DNA of 9,984 nt from a virus (lineage: Duplodnaviria > Heunggongvirae > Uroviricota > Caudoviricetes), in IMG/VR virus record IMGVR_UViG_2740892442_000016; one strand, 5' to 3'. The notes beneath the pieces are model-generated. The model was not told the DNA's origin and ran no database searches. It was given only the letters and a program-made list of their open reading frames with translations. This document shows positions 627 to 9,984 of the stretch, one piece after another. Each line of letters opens with the position of its first letter. Positions within the stretch are counted from its first letter, which is position 1. Made by a program: the position numbers and the translations under genes.

Positions 627-1121
627 TCAAAACAGCCCTTTAACGGAGCTGACCGCGCTGTTAAGGGATGATGTGACCTTATCTTTGAAGCCGGACAGCA
701 TATCACTGAACGATGAGGATTGCAGGCGCTCCCGCAAATCCTCATCACAGCGTTCAAGGGTCAGTGAAAATTCTATCTTTTTCGCCTTACCGTAGCGATC
801 AAACTCGGAACGGGTCGTATTCGTTTCGGTCAGGACATACATGCCGTAAATCTGCCCGACACCATCAATCAGAGGCCAGGGGCGTCCTGTATATGCCTGC
901 GTGGTCAGCAACGAAAGCGACACTTCGCCACCTGTAATTTCAGGATAAAGCACGCCTGAAAGCACGATGCGATCATCACCTGCACCGATATACTGCCAGC
1001 TTGCTGAACGGTTAACGCGTTCATTTTTCACATGCCGCCAGCTTTTGCTTTGCTGTAACTGCTGATGCGGCAACGTGCGCAGCTCAAAAACAAACATGCC
1101 GTAGATCATCATCATGGCCAT
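627..1121 (-). CDS. U: Phage tail protein U (P2 gpU / Mu N-like)
   Basis: 164-aa ORF directly after the tape measure gene (T stop 1128-1130, U ATG 1121-1119, GAGGAG RBS inside the T 3' end); N-terminus MMMIYGMFVFEL...LSGVLYPEITGG resembles gpU as recalled. Confidence 0.8.
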   Translation of the reverse strand: MAMMMIYGMFVFELRTLPHQQLQQSKSWRHVKNERVNRSASWQYIGAGDDRIVLSGVLYPEITGGEVSLSLLTTQAYTGRPWPLIDGVGQIYGMYVLTETNTTRSEFDRYGKAKKIEFSLTLERCDEDLRERLQSSSFSDMLSGFKDKVTSSLNSAVSSVKGLF

Positions 1122-1127
1122 GACTCC

Positions 1128-4049
1128 TCAATCTTTATCGTAAAAACTGCCACGCCCGGCACGGGCGCGCCGTTCCATTTCTGCCCTGACCATTTCACCG
1201 ACCAGTTTCGCCAGTTCGCGGGGATTCTGCGTAACAACGTTATGCAGATGAACATGAATTTCACCACCAAATCCGGAGGCAACAGGCTCCCGGTTACGGG
1301 AAGTTACAGGAACTGATGCCACTGGCGATCGTATGGCCTCCGCCACCGGGCGGGAGCTGGCCGCAACAACAGGGACCAGCGCCGGAGGCAGCGGAGCCGG
1401 GACCACGGGTGTGATATTAATTGCGGGGGCAGGCTTACTGACCTGCGCAATCTTCCGCTCCTGCCACTCCCCACCAGGGACCAGCGCCAGAGGCAGCGGA
1501 GCAGGGACCACGGGTGTGATATTAATTGCGGAGGCAGGCTTACTGACCTGCGCAATCTTCCGCTCCTGCCACTCCCCACGAACGGCAAGTGCGCGGGGCA
1601 GGTTCTTAAAGACAATATCACCGGGGCCAATGCGTTTTTTCGTCTCATCAACCAGCTTACCTGTGTTATCAGCAATTTTGCTGAGTCTGCGTAGCGTACC
1701 GGTATTGCTGTCTGTGAGCGGTTTGTTGTCTTTGGGTTTATCGCCTCCGGTGCCATTGCCATTTTCCGCAGACTTCGGCGGATTGATTTTCGCAAGGTCT
1801 CCCTGAAACAGAGCAACCTTGTCCTGAAGAATGGCCGCACGCTGTGCGTCTTCAATTTTCTTGCGCGCCCTTTCCGCTTCATCCGGAAGGACACCAAGTT
1901 TTTCAAGTATCCACGCCAGCGTATCCAGTAGCATTTTTGCAGGTGTCAGAACAAGCTGTAACGCACCGCCAAGAACGTTACCGAATATCTCGCCAGCACT
2001 GGTACATTTATCCAGCGTTTCCTTGCTGGACTCCATCGGTGACAGCAGCGATTTAAACCAGTTAAAGACCTGAATAATCCCATCGCGCACGACATCAAAA
2101 ACAGGACCGAACCGTTCAAAGGTTTCGCGCAACGGAGCCAGTCGTTCCATAATCCCGTTGAACACCCCGATATAAAACGCCTTGATGGGTTCCCAGTATT
2201 TCCAGATGAGAACTGCCGCAGCCACAAACGCGGCAACAATCAATCCGACCGGACTGAACAGCGCCCCGATAGCGCCACCCAGCAACGAGATGGAACCTGT
2301 TACCATTCCCCATAGTGCTGGCAGCACCCTGACGACATTCATTGATCCTGTCAGGAGAGAAAAACCGAGACGTAACGTAGCCAGCTTCCCGTGAAGCACC
2401 CCAATAACCAGAGACAACGAACCAACCGTTGCTGTTGTCGCCAGCAGTGCGCCTCCCGCTATCAGTAACTGGCGCGTCAGTACCGGATGGGCCTGCGCCA
2501 GCGCCGTCACCTTTGAGACCACCCGCGTGAGCCACTGCGTGACAGAACGCAGCGGACCGTCAATCAGATCTGCAATGCGGATGCGCAACCCTTCCCATGC
2601 ACTGCCGAGTGATTTCAGATCGCCATCAAGGTTGTTGGCCATAACCTTTGCCGTGCGTTCAGCCTCACCGCGTGCGCCCTCAAGTTCTTTTCTCAGTTTG
2701 GGTAAGGAACCGTCACCCGCCGCATCAACGAGTGCCATAAACGATGTGAAAGCCTCTTCCCCGGCGATGTCCTTAAAGAAGGATACCCGGTCAACTTCCC
2801 CGTATTTGCGGGTAGCTTTATAAAGGTCAGCCAGCAGATCTTCCATCGGGCGCATTTTGCCCCCGGCATCCGAGACGGACACGCCCAGCTCTTTCAGAGC
2901 TTCTGCCGCCGCCTTTGGCGGTGATGCCAGACGAGCCAGGCTGGCACGCATTGCCGTCCCGGCATCACTCCCTCTGATGCCCATATTCGCCAGCACGCCC
3001 GCCATCGCTGCGGCCTGCTCCAGCGATATCCCCAGCTTACCCGCCACCGGACCGGCATATTTCATGGTTTCGCCCAGTGCGCGAAGGTCAGTGTTGGTAC
3101 GGGTAAACGCTGCGGTGAGTGTGTCTCCGACCCGGTCCATCTGGTCAGCAGAAAGGCCGAACTGCGTCAGGATATTTGAGCCAATATCTGCCGTCTCGCC
3201 GAGATCCATACCGCCAGCCGTTGCCATGCTCAGTACGCCGGGAAGCGCAGCCTGAATGGCCTGCGGAGTGAAGCCTGCCATTGCAAGAAATGCCTGCCCA
3301 CTGGCGGCATCGCCTGCGGTGAACTGCGTTTCAGAGCCAAGTTTTAACGCCTGCTCACGCAGCGCCTTAAACTGCGGGCTGTTTTTGTCGATTCGCGTCA
3401 GTGCCTGAACGCGGGACATCTCTTTCCCGAACCCGATCGCAGGCTGCAAAAAACGCCCGGCAGCATAGCCGCCAGCCGCTGCCGCACCAATTGCCAGCGC
3501 ACCACCTGTTTTCAGTTTTCCTGCTGTTTCCTGCGCGCGCGAATACCGCTCACGCGCACGCGTTACACGCGCAAGCGCCTGCCGTTCGCGTTCAAGCTGA
3601 TTGTTGTACTGTTCGGTGCGTCTGATAGCCTGCTGGATGGTGTTATCGCTGCCTGTCAGGGAAATGCCGTGGCGTTTCAGCTCTCCGCCAAGCTCCCGCA
3701 TTTTCTGAATTTCCCGTGTGCGCGATTCATTCAGGCGTTCAAGCCGGGTGCTTAACTGCTGCATCAGCTTTTGTTGTTTTTCGCTGAGCACTGTACCCGT
3801 GCGTTGTAACTGATTAAGGGCGTTAAGCTGGCGTCGTGCTTTCACGATGCCAGCATCCGCTTTACTGACAGCGTCACGGGCGCGCTCAAATGAACGCGCC
3901 TGACGCTCGAGATTTTTGATCGCCCCCTGCGTTCGCTGGATGGAGTCACCAAACTGCCCCATCAGACGGCGGGCGTTTTCGGCAGGCCGGGTCAGCCTGT
4001 CAACGGCGCTGAAAGCGACCCGGATATCAAGAGTCTTCATTGTCTGCAT
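1128..4049 (-). CDS. T: Tail tape measure protein (P2 gpT-like)
   Basis: Long ORF, about 970-980 aa, with coiled-coil-like N-terminal part, Ala/Gly-rich hydrophobic middle and a Pro-rich C-terminal part; sits between E/E' and U. Start uncertain: ATG at 4049 or 4040, or GTG at 4076; the E+E' product overlaps the start as in P2. Confidence 0.85.
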   Translation of the reverse strand: MQTMKTLDIRVAFSAVDRLTRPAENARRLMGQFGDSIQRTQGAIKNLERQARSFERARDAVSKADAGIVKARRQLNALNQLQRTGTVLSEKQQKLMQQLSTRLERLNESRTREIQKMRELGGELKRHGISLTGSDNTIQQAIRRTEQYNNQLERERQALARVTRARERYSRAQETAGKLKTGGALAIGAAAAGGYAAGRFLQPAIGFGKEMSRVQALTRIDKNSPQFKALREQALKLGSETQFTAGDAASGQAFLAMAGFTPQAIQAALPGVLSMATAGGMDLGETADIGSNILTQFGLSADQMDRVGDTLTAAFTRTNTDLRALGETMKYAGPVAGKLGISLEQAAAMAGVLANMGIRGSDAGTAMRASLARLASPPKAAAEALKELGVSVSDAGGKMRPMEDLLADLYKATRKYGEVDRVSFFKDIAGEEAFTSFMALVDAAGDGSLPKLRKELEGARGEAERTAKVMANNLDGDLKSLGSAWEGLRIRIADLIDGPLRSVTQWLTRVVSKVTALAQAHPVLTRQLLIAGGALLATTATVGSLSLVIGVLHGKLATLRLGFSLLTGSMNVVRVLPALWGMVTGSISLLGGAIGALFSPVGLIVAAFVAAAVLIWKYWEPIKAFYIGVFNGIMERLAPLRETFERFGPVFDVVRDGIIQVFNWFKSLLSPMESSKETLDKCTSAGEIFGNVLGGALQLVLTPAKMLLDTLAWILEKLGVLPDEAERARKKIEDAQRAAILQDKVALFQGDLAKINPPKSAENGNGTGGDKPKDNKPLTDSNTGTLRRLSKIADNTGKLVDETKKRIGPGDIVFKNLPRALAVRGEWQERKIAQVSKPASAINITPVVPAPLPLALVPGGEWQERKIAQVSKPAPAINITPVVPAPLPPALVPVVAASSRPVAEAIRSPVASVPVTSRNREPVASGFGGEIHVHLHNVVTQNPRELAKLVGEMVRAEMERRARAGRGSFYDKD
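1371..1580. repeat. In-frame 105-bp tandem duplication (2 copies, 4 mismatches) inside the tape measure gene
   Basis: Copy 1 at 1371-1475 and copy 2 at 1476-1580 align base by base; they encode a repeated 35-aa unit GEWQERKIAQVSKPA(S/P)AINITPVVPAPLP(L/P)ALVP. Confidence 0.9.
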
Positions 4050-4556
4050 TCCCGCTGCGAAGTGCCGCCCGCTCACGCCAGCTAACCACTTCGCCGGGCG
4101 TCATCATGAAGATTTCGGCGGGCGACCAGTTAAAAATAACGGCAATATCTGCCACAAAGTCTTCTATGTGCTCAAAGCACACAACCGTGATCAGGCTTCC
4201 GTCGCCTGTTCGTTCTTCCCGCCAGAGTCCGCACCGCTCAAAAAATTTACGGCAACCACACATAACTGAATAAAGTCACGGGATGCCATTTTTTTGATCG
4301 TCACTTCATCCAGTCGCGGTGATGTCACGCGTGACAGCAGCGTAAACATGGATTCCGCTTTCAGATTCAGCACATCAGACAACGACAAATCTCGCAGAGA
4401 TCCAGCCTGCTCAATAGCTCCGGTGATCTCCACATACGTGATTTTTTCGCCGCCTCGCTCAATTGGTTGGGTAAGTTTTACGCCACGCTCACTGGTTTCT
4501 TTCACAGTGTCAGTAACTACCGTGTTTTCGGTATCGATGTTTTTCGTCTCTTTCAT
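4027..4556 (-). CDS. E+E': E+E' fusion made by programmed -1 ribosomal frameshift at 4245-4239; about 176 aa, overlapping the start of T
   Basis: Minus-strand heptamer T_TTT_TTG is in the E zero frame (codons AAT TTT TTG = N F L). The -1 frame is open from 4275 to the stop at 4029-4027 and reads KFFERCG... after the slip. Confidence 0.65.
4191..4556 (-). CDS. E: Tail assembly chaperone (P2 gpE-like), zero-frame product
   Basis: 121-aa ORF between FII and T with AAAGGAG RBS 8 nt upstream of the ATG at 4556; contains the slippery heptamer near its 3' end. Confidence 0.7.
   Translation of the reverse strand: MKETKNIDTENTVVTDTVKETSERGVKLTQPIERGGEKITYVEITGAIEQAGSLRDLSLSDVLNLKAESMFTLLSRVTSPRLDEVTIKKMASRDFIQLCVVAVNFLSGADSGGKNEQATEA
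4239..4245 (-). other. Slippery heptamer TTTTTTG for the E/E' -1 frameshift
   Basis: Seen in sequence; it is the same heptamer I recall for the P2 E/E' frameshift site. Confidence 0.6.
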
Positions 4557-4610
4557 CAGGAAACTCCTTTCAGTCAGAGGCGACGCACTGCGCCGCCTGC
4601 ATATTACTTA

Positions 4611-5123
4611 TCAGCCAAGCCCAAGCGCGGAACGGATACGGTCAGGCACAATGTCCTTGCCGTCCTTCCGGTAAATGAAGTTCAGCAGGTCAATCTCCCA
4701 CAACGGGCGATCGTTAACACTCAGCTTGTAGTAGGTGTTTTTAATGGCGTAAGTGTGTGATGTGGCTTCGCCCTGTTTGGCTTCCCCCATATCAATTTCC
4801 GTCACACGTCCGCGCATTTCGACTTCATACAGGTCGCTTTCTGCATCGGTGTAGTATTCACCCGCAAAACGCAGCAGCGTGCCGTCAATCGTGCCGCCAT
4901 ACTTAAGGAACAGCTCACGAACTGCGCCCCCCATGACAAAGCTCGCATCAAGCGCGGAGTCGTCCAGACCGAGATCAATACTTACCGCACCCATCATGCC
5001 ACCACCCCGGTAGCTGTCGGTTTTGCGCGTCAGTTTAGGCAGAGTGACGGACGTCACCTTACCCACTTCGTTTTCACCATCCACAAACAGCGTAAAAAAG
5101 CGAAGATGTTTTGGTACAGCCAT
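4611..5123 (-). CDS. FII: Major tail tube protein (P2 gpFII-like)
   Basis: 170-aa ORF starting MAVPKHLRFFTLFVDG...VTSVTLPKLTRK; its ATG overlaps the sheath stop in a TGATG junction at 5121-5125. Confidence 0.85.
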   Translation of the reverse strand: MAVPKHLRFFTLFVDGENEVGKVTSVTLPKLTRKTDSYRGGGMMGAVSIDLGLDDSALDASFVMGGAVRELFLKYGGTIDGTLLRFAGEYYTDAESDLYEVEMRGRVTEIDMGEAKQGEATSHTYAIKNTYYKLSVNDRPLWEIDLLNFIYRKDGKDIVPDRIRSALGLG

Positions 5124-6306
5124 CAGGCACCTCCCAGCACCGCAAATGCGGGACCAAAGAATTCATCAGTAAACGACTGGTAAAGCTCCATGTCTTCCAG
5201 CGGGGGAACTGGCGTATATTTGTAGCGAATACGCACACGTCCCTGACGTAAACCCGTGGTGCTGTTATCCACCACGTCATACCAGCACTCCGCGCCAATC
5301 AGTTTCCCGGCAGTAACCAGTGAATCCAGTTTTGCCCTGATGGCACTGATAACATCCTTCACGTTCGCAGGCGTCAGTGGACTGTCGATGGTTTCAAACT
5401 GCGCTTCCGCAATTGAATCAGCCAGCACCTGTGCGGTTCGGGTATACACCTCAAAGATGTAGGCGTTCGTTTCCGGTGTGCGGTTGCCCCAGAAGCGGAA
5501 CCCGTTACGACGAATAATGGTCGTGATTTCTTTGTTGTTAAGGCTGTTGGCATCGCTGTCTTCGGCCTGCAACGACCAGAACACATGCCGGGACATCCCC
5601 AGCACATTTTTAACCGGAACGTTGGACAGTGATTTGTGCCAGCCCTGCTCATGGTCAATGTACGCACGAAGGCCGCACGCATAAGCAGGCGCGGGGAACG
5701 TTTCGTTTTTGCCACTTTTCGGGTTGTAGGCGATGAAGTCCGGCCATAAGAGCATCACCTCACGTTCGTTGAATTTCTGGCGGTAGGTAATTGCCTCTGC
5801 CATCGTGTTACAGCCATGACATGAGGCATACACAAACGCGCGCAGTTTACCCGCAATCACGCACAGGGATTTTGTCACCGCCTCCGTGTCCAGCTCCGGC
5901 GCGGCCAGAATACGCGGACGGTATCCGATGCTTTCATCCTGCTCTGCAACAAGCAGCGCATACATCCCCGTATAGCTGCCGTCAGATTCAGAACCACCGA
6001 TAACCAGTTGATCCTGCGTCTTTCCGTTTTCTTCTTTGTGTTCAGCCACGCGAACGACGATCACCTTTGTGCTCACCTGGTCTGCGATGGCCTTAAGCGC
6101 ACGATAAAGCGTCCCCGTTGTCCCGCATTTTCCCAGCACGTCATTGACGCGGGTCAGCAGTGTGGCTTGTTCAGCGGGAACAGCTTCGCGTCCGCATCAT
6201 CCGCCGTTGCCACGATACCGATAACGCTGGAATCAACATCGTTAATCGCTGTTACCAGGTCGGTACTTTCCGTAACACGGGCACCATGAAAACGAGTTTC
6301 ACTCAT
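5123..6306 (-). CDS. FI: Tail sheath protein (P2 gpFI-like), interrupted by an apparent 1-nt frameshift near 6157-6165; possible pseudogene or sequencing error
   Basis: ATG at 6306 gives MSETRFHGARVTE...DADAKLFPLNKPHC then TGA at 6156-6154. The rest of the sheath (LLTRVNDVLGKCGTTGTLYRALKAIADQ... to the stop at 5123) continues in another frame that opens after 6196. Combined length of about 393 codons matches a full sheath. Confidence 0.8.
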
Positions 6307-6463
6307 AGCTTCAGCCCCTTGTATCCGTTAAATGATTCGGCAACAATCATCACCCACCACGCGCGTAATCTCACCCCTGCGCCGTTCTCCCGCCACGGCG
6401 ACAACAAAAAGCAGTAACCCCCTCCGCACGCACATGCGACCATGCCGCACAGGGAGGGAGCAG

Positions 6464-7573
6464 ATGACCGACACCACCATGCAATTGCTCAGTCAGGGCA
6501 CAGACACCGTGAAAATGCCGGATTTTGATATTCTCGCGGAGGGTAAAACGCTGTCAGGCGTGGCAGAGCGCCTGATGAGCCTGTCACTGACCGACAACCG
6601 GGGATTTGAGGCGGACCAGCTCACCATCACGCTGGATGATGCGGATGGTCAGTTGCAGCTACCGCCACGGGGCGCGCGCCTGACGGTTCTCATTGGCTGG
6701 AAGGGAGAACCGCTGACAGAAAAAGGCACTTACATTGTTGATGAAATCGCTCACGAAGGACCGCCGGACAGGCTGACTGTTTCAGCCAGAAGCGCAGATT
6801 TTCGGGATGAATTTAACGTTAAACGTGAGGTGTCCTGGCATGATGTGACCGTTGAGCGTGTGGTATCCGCCATCGCTCATCGGTATGGTCTGAAACCGCA
6901 AATCAGCGAAATGCTGATGGATATCGAAATCGACCACGCCGACCAGACCGAAGAAAGCGACATGTCCTTCCTTACGCGCATGGCGGAAATGCTGGGCGCA
7001 ATCACCACGGTAAAAAGCGGCAATCTGTTATTCATCATGCCAGGTGGTGGCGTGAACGCACAGGGCCAGCCGTTGCCCTCGTTCGCCATTACACGCAGCA
7101 GCGGCGATCGCCATCAGTTCCGCATTGCTGACCGCGAGGCGTATACGGGGGTACGCGCCTACTGGCTTGATCTTAATTACGGGAAAAAGAAAAAAGTCAG
7201 CGTGAAACGCCGTAAACCGCCAAAACCCAAAAAGGAGAAAAGCAGCAGCCGTGAAGGTGATTATATGGAAGGCGCGGAAGGCAATGTGTTTGTGTTACGC
7301 AAGACTTATCAGAACGAGCAGGCAGCAAGACGCGCAGCGGCGGCAAAGTGGCAGCAGCTACAACGCGGAGCCGCATCATTCTCCATCACGCTGGCATGTG
7401 GTCGTGCAGAACTCTACCCCGAAATGCATGGCACGGTAACAGGATTTAAAAGCGAGATTGATAATCAGGACTGGATTATTGCAAAAGCCGAGCACACCAT
7501 CGATAACAGCGGCTTTACCACGCAGCTTGAGCTTGAGGCAAAAATCTCGGAATGGATAGCAGAAACAGAGTGA
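6464..7573 (+). CDS. D: Phage tail protein D (P2 gpD / late control D family)
   Basis: ORF with AGGGAGGGAG RBS at 6451-6460 and ATG at 6464. Motifs SLTDNRGFEADQL, SARSADFRDEF, ESDMSFLTRMAE and YTGVRAYW fit the gpD family as recalled. The open frame runs upstream to 6332 but has no RBS there. Confidence 0.85.
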   Translation: MTDTTMQLLSQGTDTVKMPDFDILAEGKTLSGVAERLMSLSLTDNRGFEADQLTITLDDADGQLQLPPRGARLTVLIGWKGEPLTEKGTYIVDEIAHEGPPDRLTVSARSADFRDEFNVKREVSWHDVTVERVVSAIAHRYGLKPQISEMLMDIEIDHADQTEESDMSFLTRMAEMLGAITTVKSGNLLFIMPGGGVNAQGQPLPSFAITRSSGDRHQFRIADREAYTGVRAYWLDLNYGKKKKVSVKRRKPPKPKKEKSSSREGDYMEGAEGNVFVLRKTYQNEQAARRAAAAKWQQLQRGAASFSITLACGRAELYPEMHGTVTGFKSEIDNQDWIIAKAEHTIDNSGFTTQLELEAKISEWIAETE

Positions 7574-7615
7574 GCAACTTAGAATAGCAGCAGCACCACG
7601 TTAAGGGAGGTCGCT

Positions 7616-7876
7616 ATGTTCCGTTGTCCGCTTTGTGGCGCATCTGCCCGTATCCGCACCAGTCGTCCTGAAAATGATTCAAACACCGTGCGGCAAAAGT
7701 ATTACCAGTGTAACAACCTGGAATGCGGCGTATGCTTCTCAACACTGGAAGCTTTCCATAAATTCACATCAAAACACGCCTCCGGCGTTCACTCTTCAGA
7801 AGGTATCCCGTGGCATGAGCTGCCAGCTTCACACAGGGGAAACAATCAGATGAGTTTGCCTTTACCTCAGAATTAA
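7616..7876 (+). CDS. ogr: Ogr-type zinc-finger late transcription activator
   Basis: Starts MFRCPLCGASARIRTSR...YYQCNNLEC, giving the C-X2-C-X23-C-X4-C finger; AAGGGAGG RBS 5 nt upstream. At 86 aa it has a C-terminal extension relative to P2 Ogr (about 72 aa). Confidence 0.85.
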   Translation: MFRCPLCGASARIRTSRPENDSNTVRQKYYQCNNLECGVCFSTLEAFHKFTSKHASGVHSSEGIPWHELPASHRGNNQMSLPLPQN

Positions 7877-7885
7877 CAGGCAGAA

Positions 7886-7914
7886 TTGCCGGAGTAACAA
7901 AAAAGCGATAGATT
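7886..7914 (+). promoter_or_regulatory. Candidate sigma70 promoter for the toxin mRNA (TTGCCG, 17-bp spacer, TAGATT)
   Basis: Seen in sequence just after the ogr stop. It would place the transcript start near 7921, giving a leader of about 147 nt before the toxin ATG. Confidence 0.3.
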
Positions 7915-8067
7915 ACGCGCGGGTGCCTTTCGGCTGATGGTCGGAGGGAATACCCGAAGGCCAGATGTGGAAAGGCCCCGGAAAACATTTCTGTTTAACC
8001 GAGGCCCTAACATATCTACCTTAAGCAAGTGATAGGTTAGCGCCTCTCCAACAAAGGAGCAAGCGCT

Positions 8068-8208
8068 ATGTCGCAAAAATCGCTTACGGCCATCACGTTC
8101 TGCGTGACGGTAATCCTCATCATCTGGATGCTACACGGTTCGCTGTGTGAAATACGGATGAGCTTCTGGGGAGCGGAGTTTGCGGCGTTCTTACAGTGTA
8201 AGCAGTAA
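8068..8208 (+). CDS. Hok/Gef/PndA-family type I toxin (46 aa, single transmembrane helix)
   Basis: MSQKSLTAITFCVTVILIIWMLHGSLCEIRMSFWGAEFAAFLQCKQ: hydrophobic N-terminal helix followed by the SLCEIR and E-x-AAF-L-x-C-K motifs I recall from Hok and PndA; AAAGGAG RBS 8 nt upstream. Below the 60-aa cutoff of the ORF track. Confidence 0.65.
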   Translation: MSQKSLTAITFCVTVILIIWMLHGSLCEIRMSFWGAEFAAFLQCKQ

Positions 8209-8217
8209 GGAAACCGC

Positions 8218-8239
8218 GACGGGGGAGCAATCCCCCGTC
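8218..8239 (+). other. Stable stem-loop (9-bp GC-rich stem, GCAA tetraloop) directly after the toxin stop codon
   Basis: GACGGGGGA-GCAA-TCCCCCGTC seen in sequence; no U-tract follows, so it is more likely an mRNA structural element than a terminator. Confidence 0.4.
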
Positions 8240-8296
8240 AATCGGTTGCTAAGGTTGGCTGAAGTGGCACCCTATCTCACAGACATGAACAACAAA

Positions 8297-8328
8297 CCCG
8301 CAGCGTAAGAACTGCGGGTTTTCTTTTT
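8297..8328 (+). terminator. Rho-independent terminator (CCCGCAG stem, 8-nt loop, TTTTCTTTTT tail)
   Basis: Seen in sequence; would end the toxin transcript at a total length of roughly 400 nt. Confidence 0.6.
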
Positions 8329-8336
8329 GGAACTAT

Positions 8337-8364
8337 CACTAGCTAGTGTACCGTTAACGGCACA
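8337..8364. promoter_or_regulatory. Two overlapping palindromes: CACTAGCTAGTG (perfect 12-mer) and TGTaCCGTTAACGGcACA (matches the TGT-N12-ACA dyad)
   Basis: Seen in sequence. TGT-N12-ACA is the dyad I recall for Ogr/Delta-type late activators; no clear -10 element is placed correctly on either side, so function is unassigned. Confidence 0.3.
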
Positions 8365-8396
8365 TAATGCTCGCACAACAAACCTGTTAAAAGAGA

Positions 8397-8678
8397 TTAC
8401 TCAGCATTCTCCTGCTTCCATTGCCGGATCATTTCATCGGTAACATCACCCTCATAACATACCACGTCATACCCTCCATTACGGCTATATGCACTGCGTC
8501 CACCACATCTACTACCATTCCTTGCATGATTATAAGGACACGCACAATTGCCTGGATAAGATTCAATGGATTCTTTAATTATTTCTTTTTTGATCTGAGC
8601 ATCAGACTTTCCTGTTGCTGCATATCCGCTAAAAGATACTAAACAAAGGCAGATTGCCATTAATAAACCACATCGCAT
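8397..8678 (-). CDS. Hypothetical small secreted Cys-containing protein in an AT-rich cargo segment
   Basis: The ORF is open to 8792, but the likely start is the Met at 8678 that begins a signal-peptide-like stretch (MRCGLLMAICLCLVSFSGYAA, A-A before TGK). The mature part is about 70 aa with four Cys (GNCACPYNHARNGSRCGGRSAYSRNGGYDVVCYEG). Weak RBS; local AT content is clearly higher than in the flanking phage genes. Family not recognised. Confidence 0.45.
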   Translation of the reverse strand: MRCGLLMAICLCLVSFSGYAATGKSDAQIKKEIIKESIESYPGNCACPYNHARNGSRCGGRSAYSRNGGYDVVCYEGDVTDEMIRQWKQENAE

Positions 8679-8910
8679 ACCGATACACTCTATTACTAAC
8701 CAATCATAGTCCACATCATAAAATCGAGATGAGGAGTACAATACCTTTAACAAGAAGGTGTCATAACGATAATATGTCGTGCAATTCATCAAAAAAAAGA
8801 TCTATATCAAAGAGATAGAACTCTTATCAGTGCTTCAGACATCGGCATTCGAGGCAGCAGAAAAACAGTAAATTTGACGAATTTGCCTTTTCCCAAGATG
8901 TTGTCAGATT

Positions 8911-9064
8911 AAAAAGATAGATTAGCGCAGGTACCTGTTGGTGGATTGCAGGAGGAAAAATGAAGTCGAGTGGAAAAATCCCAGAAAAATTTTTGTTTAA
9001 CAGAGGTCCTGGTTCACTATGCGAAATACGGAGGAGCTGCAGAAGAATTCTGCTTCATCCTTAG
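8911..9064 (+). pseudogene. Internally deleted paralog of the toxin locus (promoter -10, leader and toxin C-terminal segment retained; toxin transmembrane region missing)
   Basis: 8911-8935 resembles 7900-7927 (AAAAAG..ATAGATTA..GCGCAGGTACC), 8970-9010 resembles 7967-8008, and 9011-9042 resembles 8137-8170; the 128 bp between the last two in the intact copy (8009-8136) are absent. The remaining ORF (ATG 8960, stop 9062-9064) reads MKSSGKIPEKFLFNRGPGSLCEIRRSCRRILLHP. Confidence 0.45.
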
Positions 9065-9140
9065 AGTTTAAACAGCACGTGCACTACCATTGTTTCTGCA
9101 TATCGCCACACCATCGCCACTCAACCGCCATTGCACAAAA

Positions 9141-9173
9141 TACAAATACAAAAAAACCACCCGAAGGTGGTTT
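9141..9173 (-). terminator. Rho-independent terminator of the glyW-cysT-leuZ tRNA operon
   Basis: Plus-strand ACCACC-CGAA-GGTGGT hairpin (9156-9171); on the minus strand it is followed by TTTTTGTATTTG, about 45 nt past the leuZ 3' end. Confidence 0.6.
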
Positions 9174-9216
9174 CACGACACTGCTTATTGCTTTGATTTT
9201 ATTCTTATCTTTCCCA

Positions 9217-9303
9217 TGGTACCCGGAGCGGGACTTGAACCCGCACAGCGCGAACGCCGAGGGATTTTAAATCCCTTGTGTCTACCGATTCCACCATCCG
9301 GGC
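9217..9303 (-). tRNA. leuZ: tRNA-Leu (anticodon UAA), 87 nt, CCA encoded
   Basis: Reverse complement reads GCCCGGATGGTGGAATCGGTAGACACAAGGGATTTAAAATCCC...GGGTACCA: cloverleaf with long variable arm, matching E. coli leuZ as recalled. Confidence 0.92.
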
Positions 9304-9315
9304 TCGGGAAGAAAG

Positions 9316-9389
9316 TGGAGGCGCGTTCCGGAGTCGAACCGGACTAGACGGATTTGCAATCCGCTACATAACCGCTTTGTTAACGCGCC
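9316..9389 (-). tRNA. cysT: tRNA-Cys (anticodon GCA), 74 nt
   Basis: Reverse complement reads GGCGCGTTAACAAAGCGGTTATGTAGCGGATTGCAAATCCGTCTAGTCCGGTTCGACTCCGGAACGCGCCTCCA. Confidence 0.92.
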
Positions 9390-9442
9390 AAATTCTTCAG
9401 GCCTTTCAGCCAGACATCCGCTGACGCCGATGTCTTTTAAAC

Positions 9443-9519
<77 letters not shown>

Positions 9520-9669
9520 TTCATCAAGCAATCAGTTAATCACTTGATTTTATTATCGTCTGGCAATCAGTGCCGCCGTTCGATGCGTTGCATTCTACTT
9601 ACCTGGCGCGATGAGTCAACGATATTTTTCACCACTTTTGATCGTTTGCTGAAAATTGCGCCGAAACGA

Positions 9670-9984
9670 TCACTGATCAAGCAAATCTGCACGCGCAGCG
9701 CTCAAATATTGCAACATTGACCACAGAGTCAGTACCGCAGCCACAAAGAAAAGTGCAATACCGGCGTACTCAACCCAAATGTTCGGACGCCACAGCAGCC
9801 AGGCCAACGCCACCATCTGGGCAGTGGTTTTCACTTTCCCAATCCAGGAGACAGCCACGCTACTGCGTTTACCCAACTCCGCCATCCATTCGCGTAGCGC
9901 AGAAATAATAATTTCACGGGCGATCATCGTTGCCGCCGGTAAGGTCACCCACCAGCTGTGATAATGCTCGGTTACCAGCACCAT
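9670..9984 (-). CDS. pgsA: Phosphatidylglycerophosphate synthase, C-terminal 104 codons (5' part lies beyond the window end)
   Basis: Translation ...[42 protein letters not shown]...[11 protein letters not shown] matches the E. coli PgsA C-terminus as recalled; lies upstream of the tRNA operon on the same strand. Confidence 0.9.

Follow-up and report, generated by a model that had tools for sequence, protein, structure and literature searches.

An in-frame tandem repeat of variable copy number in the tape-measure gene of a P88-like Escherichia coli prophage

The tape-measure gene and its 105-bp repeat

The virus record IMGVR_UViG_2740892442_000016 of IMG/VR is a DNA stretch of 9,984 nucleotides (referred to in its entirety as the window) that carries tail genes of a prophage, among them a gene for a tail tape-measure protein, gpT, in which two 105-base-pair (bp) units lie head-to-tail. 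The gpT gene occupies 1128..4040 on the minus strand and encodes 970 amino acids (aa) plus a stop codon, with the ATG at 4040 assigned as in the annotation of relatives; the longest open reading frame (ORF) of this frame reaches a GTG at 4076 (982-aa ORF). The Pfam profile PhageMin_Tail (PF10145) matched the 982-aa ORF at 196.1 bits (cutoff 33.2; E=7.6e-58), with profile positions 1-201 aligned at aa 240-439, and the PDB tape-measure chain 9g8s_w matched gpT with E=2e-40. As is characteristic of tape measures, the 970-aa protein is long and has central hydrophobic segments (aa 530-550 and 583-616), and helices are predicted on either side of a linker in its C-terminal 270 aa, the part that was modelled. 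The position of the gene is that of a tape measure as well, the window sharing the order FI-FII-E-E'-T-U with its annotated relatives. Because of the PhageMin_Tail score, the position between gpE/E' and gpU, and the identity to annotated tape-measure genes of P88-like phages, we assign 1128-4040 by sequence as a P2 gpT-type tape-measure gene, the product of which would, by analogy, act as a ruler in the tail lumen.

Tandem Repeats Finder identified a single strong array in the window, at 1370-1579 (period 105, 2.0 copies, 97% matches, 0 indels, score 399), and direct alignment of the two copies gave an identity of 102/105 (97.1%). The first-pass annotation of this DNA had described two adjacent, nearly identical 105-bp copies, and both analyses confirm them; its span of 1371-1580 was one base off, the edges at 1370-1579 being exact in that extension by 1 base fails on either side, and its estimate of about 96% identity is replaced by the measured value. 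An identity of at least 102/105 at one offset would arise by chance with p ~3e-57. The period corresponds to 35 codons and the array lies in frame within an uninterrupted minus-strand ORF (1128-4076), where it forms residues 822-891 of the 970-aa product and leaves 79 residues C-terminal to it, so that the description of an in-frame, proline-rich 35-aa unit in the C-terminal part of gpT holds. At the protein level the unit reads GEWQERKIAQVSKPA(P/S)AINITPVVPAPLP(P/L)ALVP followed by a junction residue (G or V), and proline accounts for 8/35 of its residues.

The two copies differ at unit columns 48, 77, and 91 (gene strand), with two of the three differences being non-synonymous (S/P and L/P) and one synonymous. 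Unit A, the first in gene order (1475..1579, minus strand), has the haplotype T,T,T at columns 48/77/91 and encodes GEWQERKIAQVSKPASAINITPVVPAPLPLALVP-G, and unit B, the second (1370..1474, minus strand), has the haplotype C,G,C. Unit B shows no difference from the last unit of the three-copy alleles in loci L004 and L005, and it shares C,G,C with the single-copy allele of phage PhiR44_2 (the only single-copy allele examined), from which it differs at two other positions. Older, degenerate copies of the unit were not detected elsewhere in gpT above the level of shuffled sequence (best local score 27 vs. shuffle mean 26.3), nor was an RNA element indicated in the repeat, as the Rfam matches in the window were three host tRNAs only.

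Comparison of the copy count with related prophages, as had been proposed in the first-pass annotation, identified one unit in all of the phage records and up to six in prophages. The array is thus an in-frame variable-number tandem repeat with alleles of 1, 2, 3, 4, and 6 copies, of which the single-copy allele is much the most frequent. A single unit was found in 13/13 related phage records, with a T gene of 2,844 bp vs. 2,949 bp in the window. The region is present in 1,368 of 5,426 complete E. coli genomes, and ~1,363 of the 1,368 carriers are single-copy; all 59 sampled single-copy rows from these genomes (59/59) span 311-315 bp of the 420-bp query. Multi-copy arrays were detected with a 54-bp query that has the unit-unit junction at its centre, so that a single-copy genome cannot reach the E-value limit with it. 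This query matched five complete E. coli genomes, with two matches in each, and all five have three units in a gene of 3,018 bp. An exact scan for the junction added an IMG/VR contig (L013) with six units in an intact ORF of 1,122 codons and a metagenome contig (L014) with a two-unit array of a second haplotype (TTC.CGC, in the notation explained below). Another IMG/VR contig, L012, starts inside the array (position 1-145). The same exact scan of a collection with one genome per species returned no multi-copy array, so such arrays have been seen only in E. coli and in metagenomes.

An allele census, performed by exact-sequence look-up in a collection of 15 billion proteins, gave 4 contigs for the two-copy allele of the window, 47 for the two-copy TTC.CGC allele, 95 and 166 for the three-copy allele on its two backgrounds, one for the four-copy allele (background II; protein WP_306164123.1), and one for the six-copy allele (E. 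coli UMEA 3193-1); a five-copy protein was not among the sequences looked up, and exact look-up of the predicted four-copy protein on background I found it not to be on record. The databases contain intact proteins of 935, 970, 1005, 1040, and 1110 aa, and all of the alleles keep the frame. The flanks of the two-, three-, and six-copy loci are ≥99.7% identical on the left and 98.7-99.9% on the right. The copy-number instability that had been suggested for this repeat is therefore borne out, with related prophages having 1, 2, 3, 4, or 6 copies, and as two closely related backgrounds carry a number of different arrays, the rate of expansion and contraction may be raised.

The C-terminal linker and its predicted effect on tail length

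Alignment with the tape measures of three other Peduoviridae genera, plus 32 database homologues, was used to delimit conserved modules in the C-terminal part of gpT, and the array sits between two of them, in a proline-rich linker that is predicted to be disordered. The first module, KRIGPGDIVFKNLPRALAVRGEW (1569..1637, minus strand; aa 802-824), is conserved across four Peduoviridae genera, with IGPGDIVFK, L, P, ALA, and RG invariant, few positions substituted and most residues fixed; the repeat unit begins with GEW, the last three residues of this module. The variable linker that holds the array is rich in proline, alanine, and valine (1266..1604, minus strand; aa 813-925) and is 113 aa long in the window. 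It is followed by the second module, GEIHVHLH...RGSFYDKD (1131..1265, minus strand; aa 926-970), which has the consensus GEIHVHLH...RGSFxDxD in homologues and includes a predicted helix with a predicted local distance difference test score (pLDDT) of 73-84. By analogy, this terminal module presumably attaches the protein to the baseplate hub or spike.

An AlphaFold2 model of the C-terminal 270 aa of gpT (mean pLDDT 52.9, predicted template modelling score 0.19), used only for secondary-structure tendency, gave the array no secondary structure (pLDDT 35-44) and placed helices on both flanks of the linker. Searches of the PDB with the whole protein and with a profile of the C-terminal region returned no structure that covers the linker or the C-terminal modules. 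Linker lengths in 72 homologues lie between 57 and 233 aa, with 78 aa in single-copy Xuanwuvirus types and 148 aa in the three-copy alleles. In another E. coli tape-measure lineage, P0100, the linker contains a near-perfect tandem duplication of 59 aa (aa ~182-300), and in P0076 it is rich in proline and valine, 77 aa longer than in the relative P0068, and has a repeat at an offset of 81 aa; both are independent expansions. A protein database search with the C-terminal 270 aa gave 118 cluster representatives, mostly contig-end fragments, and in none of them was the 35-aa unit present more than once.

Phage P88, which has one unit and a tape measure of 935 aa, has a tail of 137-140 nm (PMC5285337), from which we computed a ratio of 0.147 nm/aa, in line with the 0.145-0.15 nm/aa of TP901-1 and lambda (PMC5099701). 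At 0.147 nm/aa it is plausible, by analogy with these phages, that each unit would add ~5 nm to the tail, or ~1-2 tube/sheath rings. The rise of one tube/sheath ring is ~4 nm. If the attachment to the spike or hub is confined to the extreme C-terminus, every unit would lengthen the ruler, and the gain per unit would be higher for an extended proline-rich segment and lower for a compact one. The tape measure of the contractile system diffocin has been fully traced, and there only ~23 residues at the C-terminus are attached to the spike, with the remainder of the protein running through the lumen (PMC11329794). As the array ends 79 residues from the C-terminus of gpT, it should therefore, by analogy with diffocin, lie in the lumen.

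Three cautions apply to this estimate. A non-helical structure is predicted for the unit, at low confidence (pLDDT 35-44), and 0.15 nm/aa may not apply to such a segment; in TP901-1 a terminal part of the tape measure does not contribute to length; and the range of 57-233 aa for the linker in relatives fits a neutral spacer equally well. Multi-copy alleles make up ~0.4% of the carriers among complete genomes, a rarity that makes strong selection in favour of longer arrays improbable. The array may be real and unstable with its linker outside the length-measuring segment, such that copy number drifts and tail length is unaffected, and the linker might for instance loop inside the cavity of the baseplate or hub, or be slack. 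We consider this somewhat unlikely, while giving it serious weight. It is favoured by the predicted disorder of the linker, by a four-fold variation in linker length among relatives that retain both flanking modules, by the rarity of multi-copy alleles, and by TP901-1, in which ~127 terminal residues of the tape measure are not counted toward length (PMC5099701). Against it are diffocin, the one contractile system with a full model, with its anchor of only ~23 C-terminal residues, the end of the array 79 residues before the C-terminus, and the fact that the full-length ratio of P88 is already at the canonical 0.147 nm/aa, so that a large part of the protein can hardly be exempt from measuring.

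A more far-reaching proposal is that the proline-rich C-terminal linker of P2-family tape measures is a dedicated, evolvable "vernier" for tail length, with recurrent duplications in separate lineages (the 35-aa unit of the window, the 59-aa unit of P0100, and the ~81-aa repeat of P0076) and fast expansion and contraction thereafter. We regard this as doubtful. Were it true, prophage populations would maintain a reservoir of different tail lengths, or of different distances that the ejected tape measure can bridge across the periplasm, on which selection could act as hosts that differ in envelope or in O-antigen or capsule thickness are met.

Origin of the two-copy allele

The alleles can be compared through the haplotypes of their units, read at columns 48/77/91 and listed in gene order. 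The single-copy haplotype is CGC; the two-copy array of L014 reads TTC.CGC, the three-copy array TTC.CTT.CGC, the four-copy array TTC.CTT.CTT.CGC, and the six-copy array TTC.CTT.CTT.TTC.CTT.CGC, and the two-copy array of the window reads TTT.CGC. In the three-copy array T48 is limited to unit 1 and T91 to unit 2, and the TTT unit of the window combines both. When all single exchanges were enumerated, an exchange between unit 1 and unit 2 of the three-copy array, located between columns 48 and 91, gave TTT.CGC without further change, whereas derivation of the three-copy array from the window allele required one extra substitution for the observed unit 1. The flanks fit the loss of one unit: relative to the three-copy prophage of strain 1439, which is at the same chromosomal site, positions 1-1369 of the window have 0 differences, and within 1580-9984 the prophage part differs by a single 1-bp indel. 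The three-copy allele is also commoner than that of the window and occurs on two slightly diverged backgrounds, which suggests that it is the older of the two. Based on the chimeric TTT unit, the identical flanks, and the greater frequency of the three-copy allele on two backgrounds, we read the window allele as a contraction from three units to two.

The following sequence of events would account for the known alleles. As all of the multi-copy alleles share one junction, there would have been one founding duplication, which made the unit-unit junction common to every multi-copy allele; point mutations would afterwards have marked individual units; and misaligned pairing of units, through either unequal homologous recombination or replication slippage, would then have grown and shrunk the array. 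In the three-copy allele, an exchange between units 1 and 2 within columns 48-91 would have removed exactly one unit and kept the frame. We believe it likely that the array in the window is one allele of a polymorphic gpT repeat and that it arose in this manner, by the loss of one of three units. The repeat and its frame, the series of alleles, the chimeric haplotype, the identity of the flanks, and the recurrence of the allele in independent datasets are observed; the direction of this change, the exchange mechanism, and any phenotype are what we infer. Points to be set against this account are that the direction is a matter of parsimony on only three informative sites and that a parallel C->T substitution could likewise have produced TTT.

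The alternative suggested by the first-pass annotation, a recent event, would be a fresh duplication in which a single-copy gene in the lineage of the window duplicated 105 bp once and then acquired three substitutions. The single copy is overwhelmingly the commonest state, and the downstream unit has the C,G,C of the examined single-copy allele, both of which agree with such an origin. The three substitutions would, however, have fallen within 105 bp while the other ~8.2 kb of the prophage acquired 0 (relative to strain 1439), all three of the "new" bases are already present in units 1 and 2 of the three-copy allele on the same background, and the junction is common to every multi-copy allele. 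A fresh duplication is therefore very unlikely, and the notion of a recent step from one copy to two does not stand, as the differences between the copies are better explained as inherited from an older three-copy array.

As for the reality of the allele, the TTT.CGC array is identical in three independent datasets (four contigs), which are the metagenome contig ERZ27270957 k95_491 (two samples), the isolate GCA_025786305.2, and the source of the window, GCA_001630845.1, an E. coli draft genome in which contig JUDY01000058.1 is 100% identical to the window. From k≥44 the array has k-mers that are missing from the three-copy sequence, including 52 95-mers, and for this reason a de Bruijn assembler with k=95 (taken as the final k-mer size from "k95" in the contig name) could not have built the array from three-copy reads. 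An assembly artefact, in which three real units (or one) were collapsed or mis-joined into a chimeric unit, is thus highly improbable: if units 1 and 2 had been collapsed, exactly this chimeric pattern would be expected, contigs do break at the array (L012 begins within it), and elsewhere in this assembly the sheath gene shows a suspicious 1-bp indel, but the identical TTT.CGC recurs in the three independent datasets and the array requires k-mers found in no three-copy genome. Loss of a unit from a three-copy array remains the reading that we prefer. That the two-copy allele is real is indicated indirectly, from assemblies, and an error in the source assembly or heterogeneity of the culture is possible; this too counts against our account.

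Most of the database hits to the C-terminal region of gpT are contig-end fragments. Short-read assemblies seem often to break in or near the array, at which they can also mis-size it, and copy numbers taken from draft genomes need care.

The surrounding prophage and comparison with known tape measures

The genes around gpT are those of a P2-type tail. The tail assembly chaperone gene gpE (4191-4556, minus strand) is followed by the GpE-family E' frame (4027-4182, minus strand), the frameshift product of this chaperone pair, which overlaps the start of T, and the gene for tail protein gpU (627..1115, minus strand) is directly downstream of T. The tube gene FII is at 4611-5123, the tail sheath gene FI at 5123-6306 (minus strand), gpD at 6464-7573 on the strand opposite to T, and a DNA invertase gene at 1-600. 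This gene order is exactly that of P88-like phages (Xuanwuvirus, Peduoviridae). The T gene has 94.5-95.5% identity to those of P88, the Xuanwuvirus P884B11, and PhiR44_2 (P88 itself, 94.6%), and PhiR44_2 is 96.6% identical across 6.8 kb with the gene order conserved. By order and identity, the window is assigned to a P88-like (Xuanwuvirus-type, P2-family) E. coli prophage. A rearrangement had been considered for gpD on the opposite strand and the invertase beside gpU, and this was rejected because the order is normal in this phage group.

At the end of the prophage, 7616-7876 and 8068-8208 (both plus strand) contain genes for an Ogr/Delta-type zinc-finger late activator and a Hok/Gef-family toxin, after which comes a small conserved hypothetical gene at 8397-8678 (minus strand); no Sok-like antisense RNA was found at the Rfam gathering thresholds. 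Host DNA (tRNA-Leu, tRNA-Cys, tRNA-Gly, and pgsA) extends from ~8330 to the right end of the window. In the host flank at 9311-9961 (tRNA spacers and pgsA), there are 7 single-nucleotide polymorphisms in ~650 bp between the window and strain 1439, whereas the ~8.2 kb of prophage has 0 substitutions, which suggests that the prophage recently spread horizontally between E. coli backgrounds or that the flank recombined between them. The three-copy prophage type occurs at two chromosomal sites (L007 vs. L008): in strain 1439 (L007), as in the window, the prophage adjoins leuZ-cysT-glyW-pgsA, and in an ST69 strain (L008; NZ_CP102488) it adjoins raiA and has a gene for an ATP-dependent nuclease and a methyltransferase fragment after hok, which are possibly defence cargo.

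To the left of the invertase gene (~1-2050 of the loci concerned), a segment with tail-fibre and fibre-assembly genes is in opposite orientations in L002 vs. L003 and in L004 vs. L005. These prophages are otherwise identical, and the inversion has led to the annotation of several fibre genes as partial, a pattern that fits an active Gin/Cin-type invertible host-range switch. In RefSeq, gpD of the three-copy strains is annotated as a 266-aa "VgrG/Pvc8 family" protein with an upstream pseudo-fragment (L007 15432-16232). The gpD DNA is identical in L007 and at 6464-7573 of the window, where the full 369-aa frame is open, and the shortening is probably an inconsistency of start codon or annotation as opposed to a true truncation.

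The suspicious indel in the sheath gene is a deletion of 1 bp near 6163 (6160-6166), where CCC is reduced to CC on the gene strand such that AAG CCC ACA becomes AAG CCA CAC TGC TGA, and ORFs of 50 and 338 aa result. It is private to the assembly of the window. Both other carriers of the two-copy allele have an intact sheath gene (394 aa), as do the three-copy loci L007 and L008; it is intact also in L009, L010, and L013. Either the gene is a true pseudogene here or the deletion is a sequencing error. In the former case no contractile tail at all could be made by this copy, which may be a dead prophage, and the length of the tape measure would therefore be without a phenotype in this strain.

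Among the closest known systems is the gpT of P88 and other Xuanwuvirus phages, which has the same gene order, a T gene 94.6% identical to that of the window, and the same unit, once: in P88, as in all 12 further phage records that are related, a single unit is present and the protein has 935 aa, as opposed to two units and 970 aa in the window. Outside this group the kind of feature described here is already known, both as tape-measure repeats of siphoviruses and as the length rule, and it is somewhat unusual for a myovirus group, in that a 2026 survey found the tape measures of myoviruses to be typically without tandem repeats (PMC13585406). The TP901-1 tape measure is alike in having an internal repeat region in which in-frame changes of unit number are tolerated and the tail scales at 0.145 nm/aa, and its authors suggest that the repeats ease duplication and deletion (PMC5099701). 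The differences are nonetheless considerable. TP901-1 is a siphovirus whose repeats of 11/18 residues are degenerate, marked by aromatic residues, and located in the central helical ruler, whereas the window derives from a myovirus with a 35-aa unit that is near-identical in DNA, predicted to be non-helical, and located in a C-terminal linker. The unit of the window has one aromatic residue (W), at a spacing of 35, and so does not belong to the aromatic-marked 11/18-residue type. In addition, the copy-number variants of TP901-1 were engineered and those described here are natural alleles within a lineage.

For lambda gpH, work by Katsura and Hendrix in 1984 and by Katsura in 1987 reportedly established a protein ruler in which in-frame insertions and deletions change tail length proportionally, an idea on which the estimate given above for gpT also draws. 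The lambda work was experimental and concerned a non-contractile tail without a natural repeat polymorphism. Mycobacteriophage tape-measure genes are said, by Belcaid and colleagues in 2011, to gain and lose tandem units, a series that extends between siphoviruses over long times; the series described here runs 1-2-3-4-6 within one prophage lineage at a flank identity of at least 99.7%. A natural series of 1, 2, 3, 4, and 6 units on almost identical backgrounds in a contractile-tailed, P2-type phage could be used to test whether a non-helical, probably disordered C-terminal linker counts toward the ruler, and whether tail length shifts by whole tube/sheath rings.

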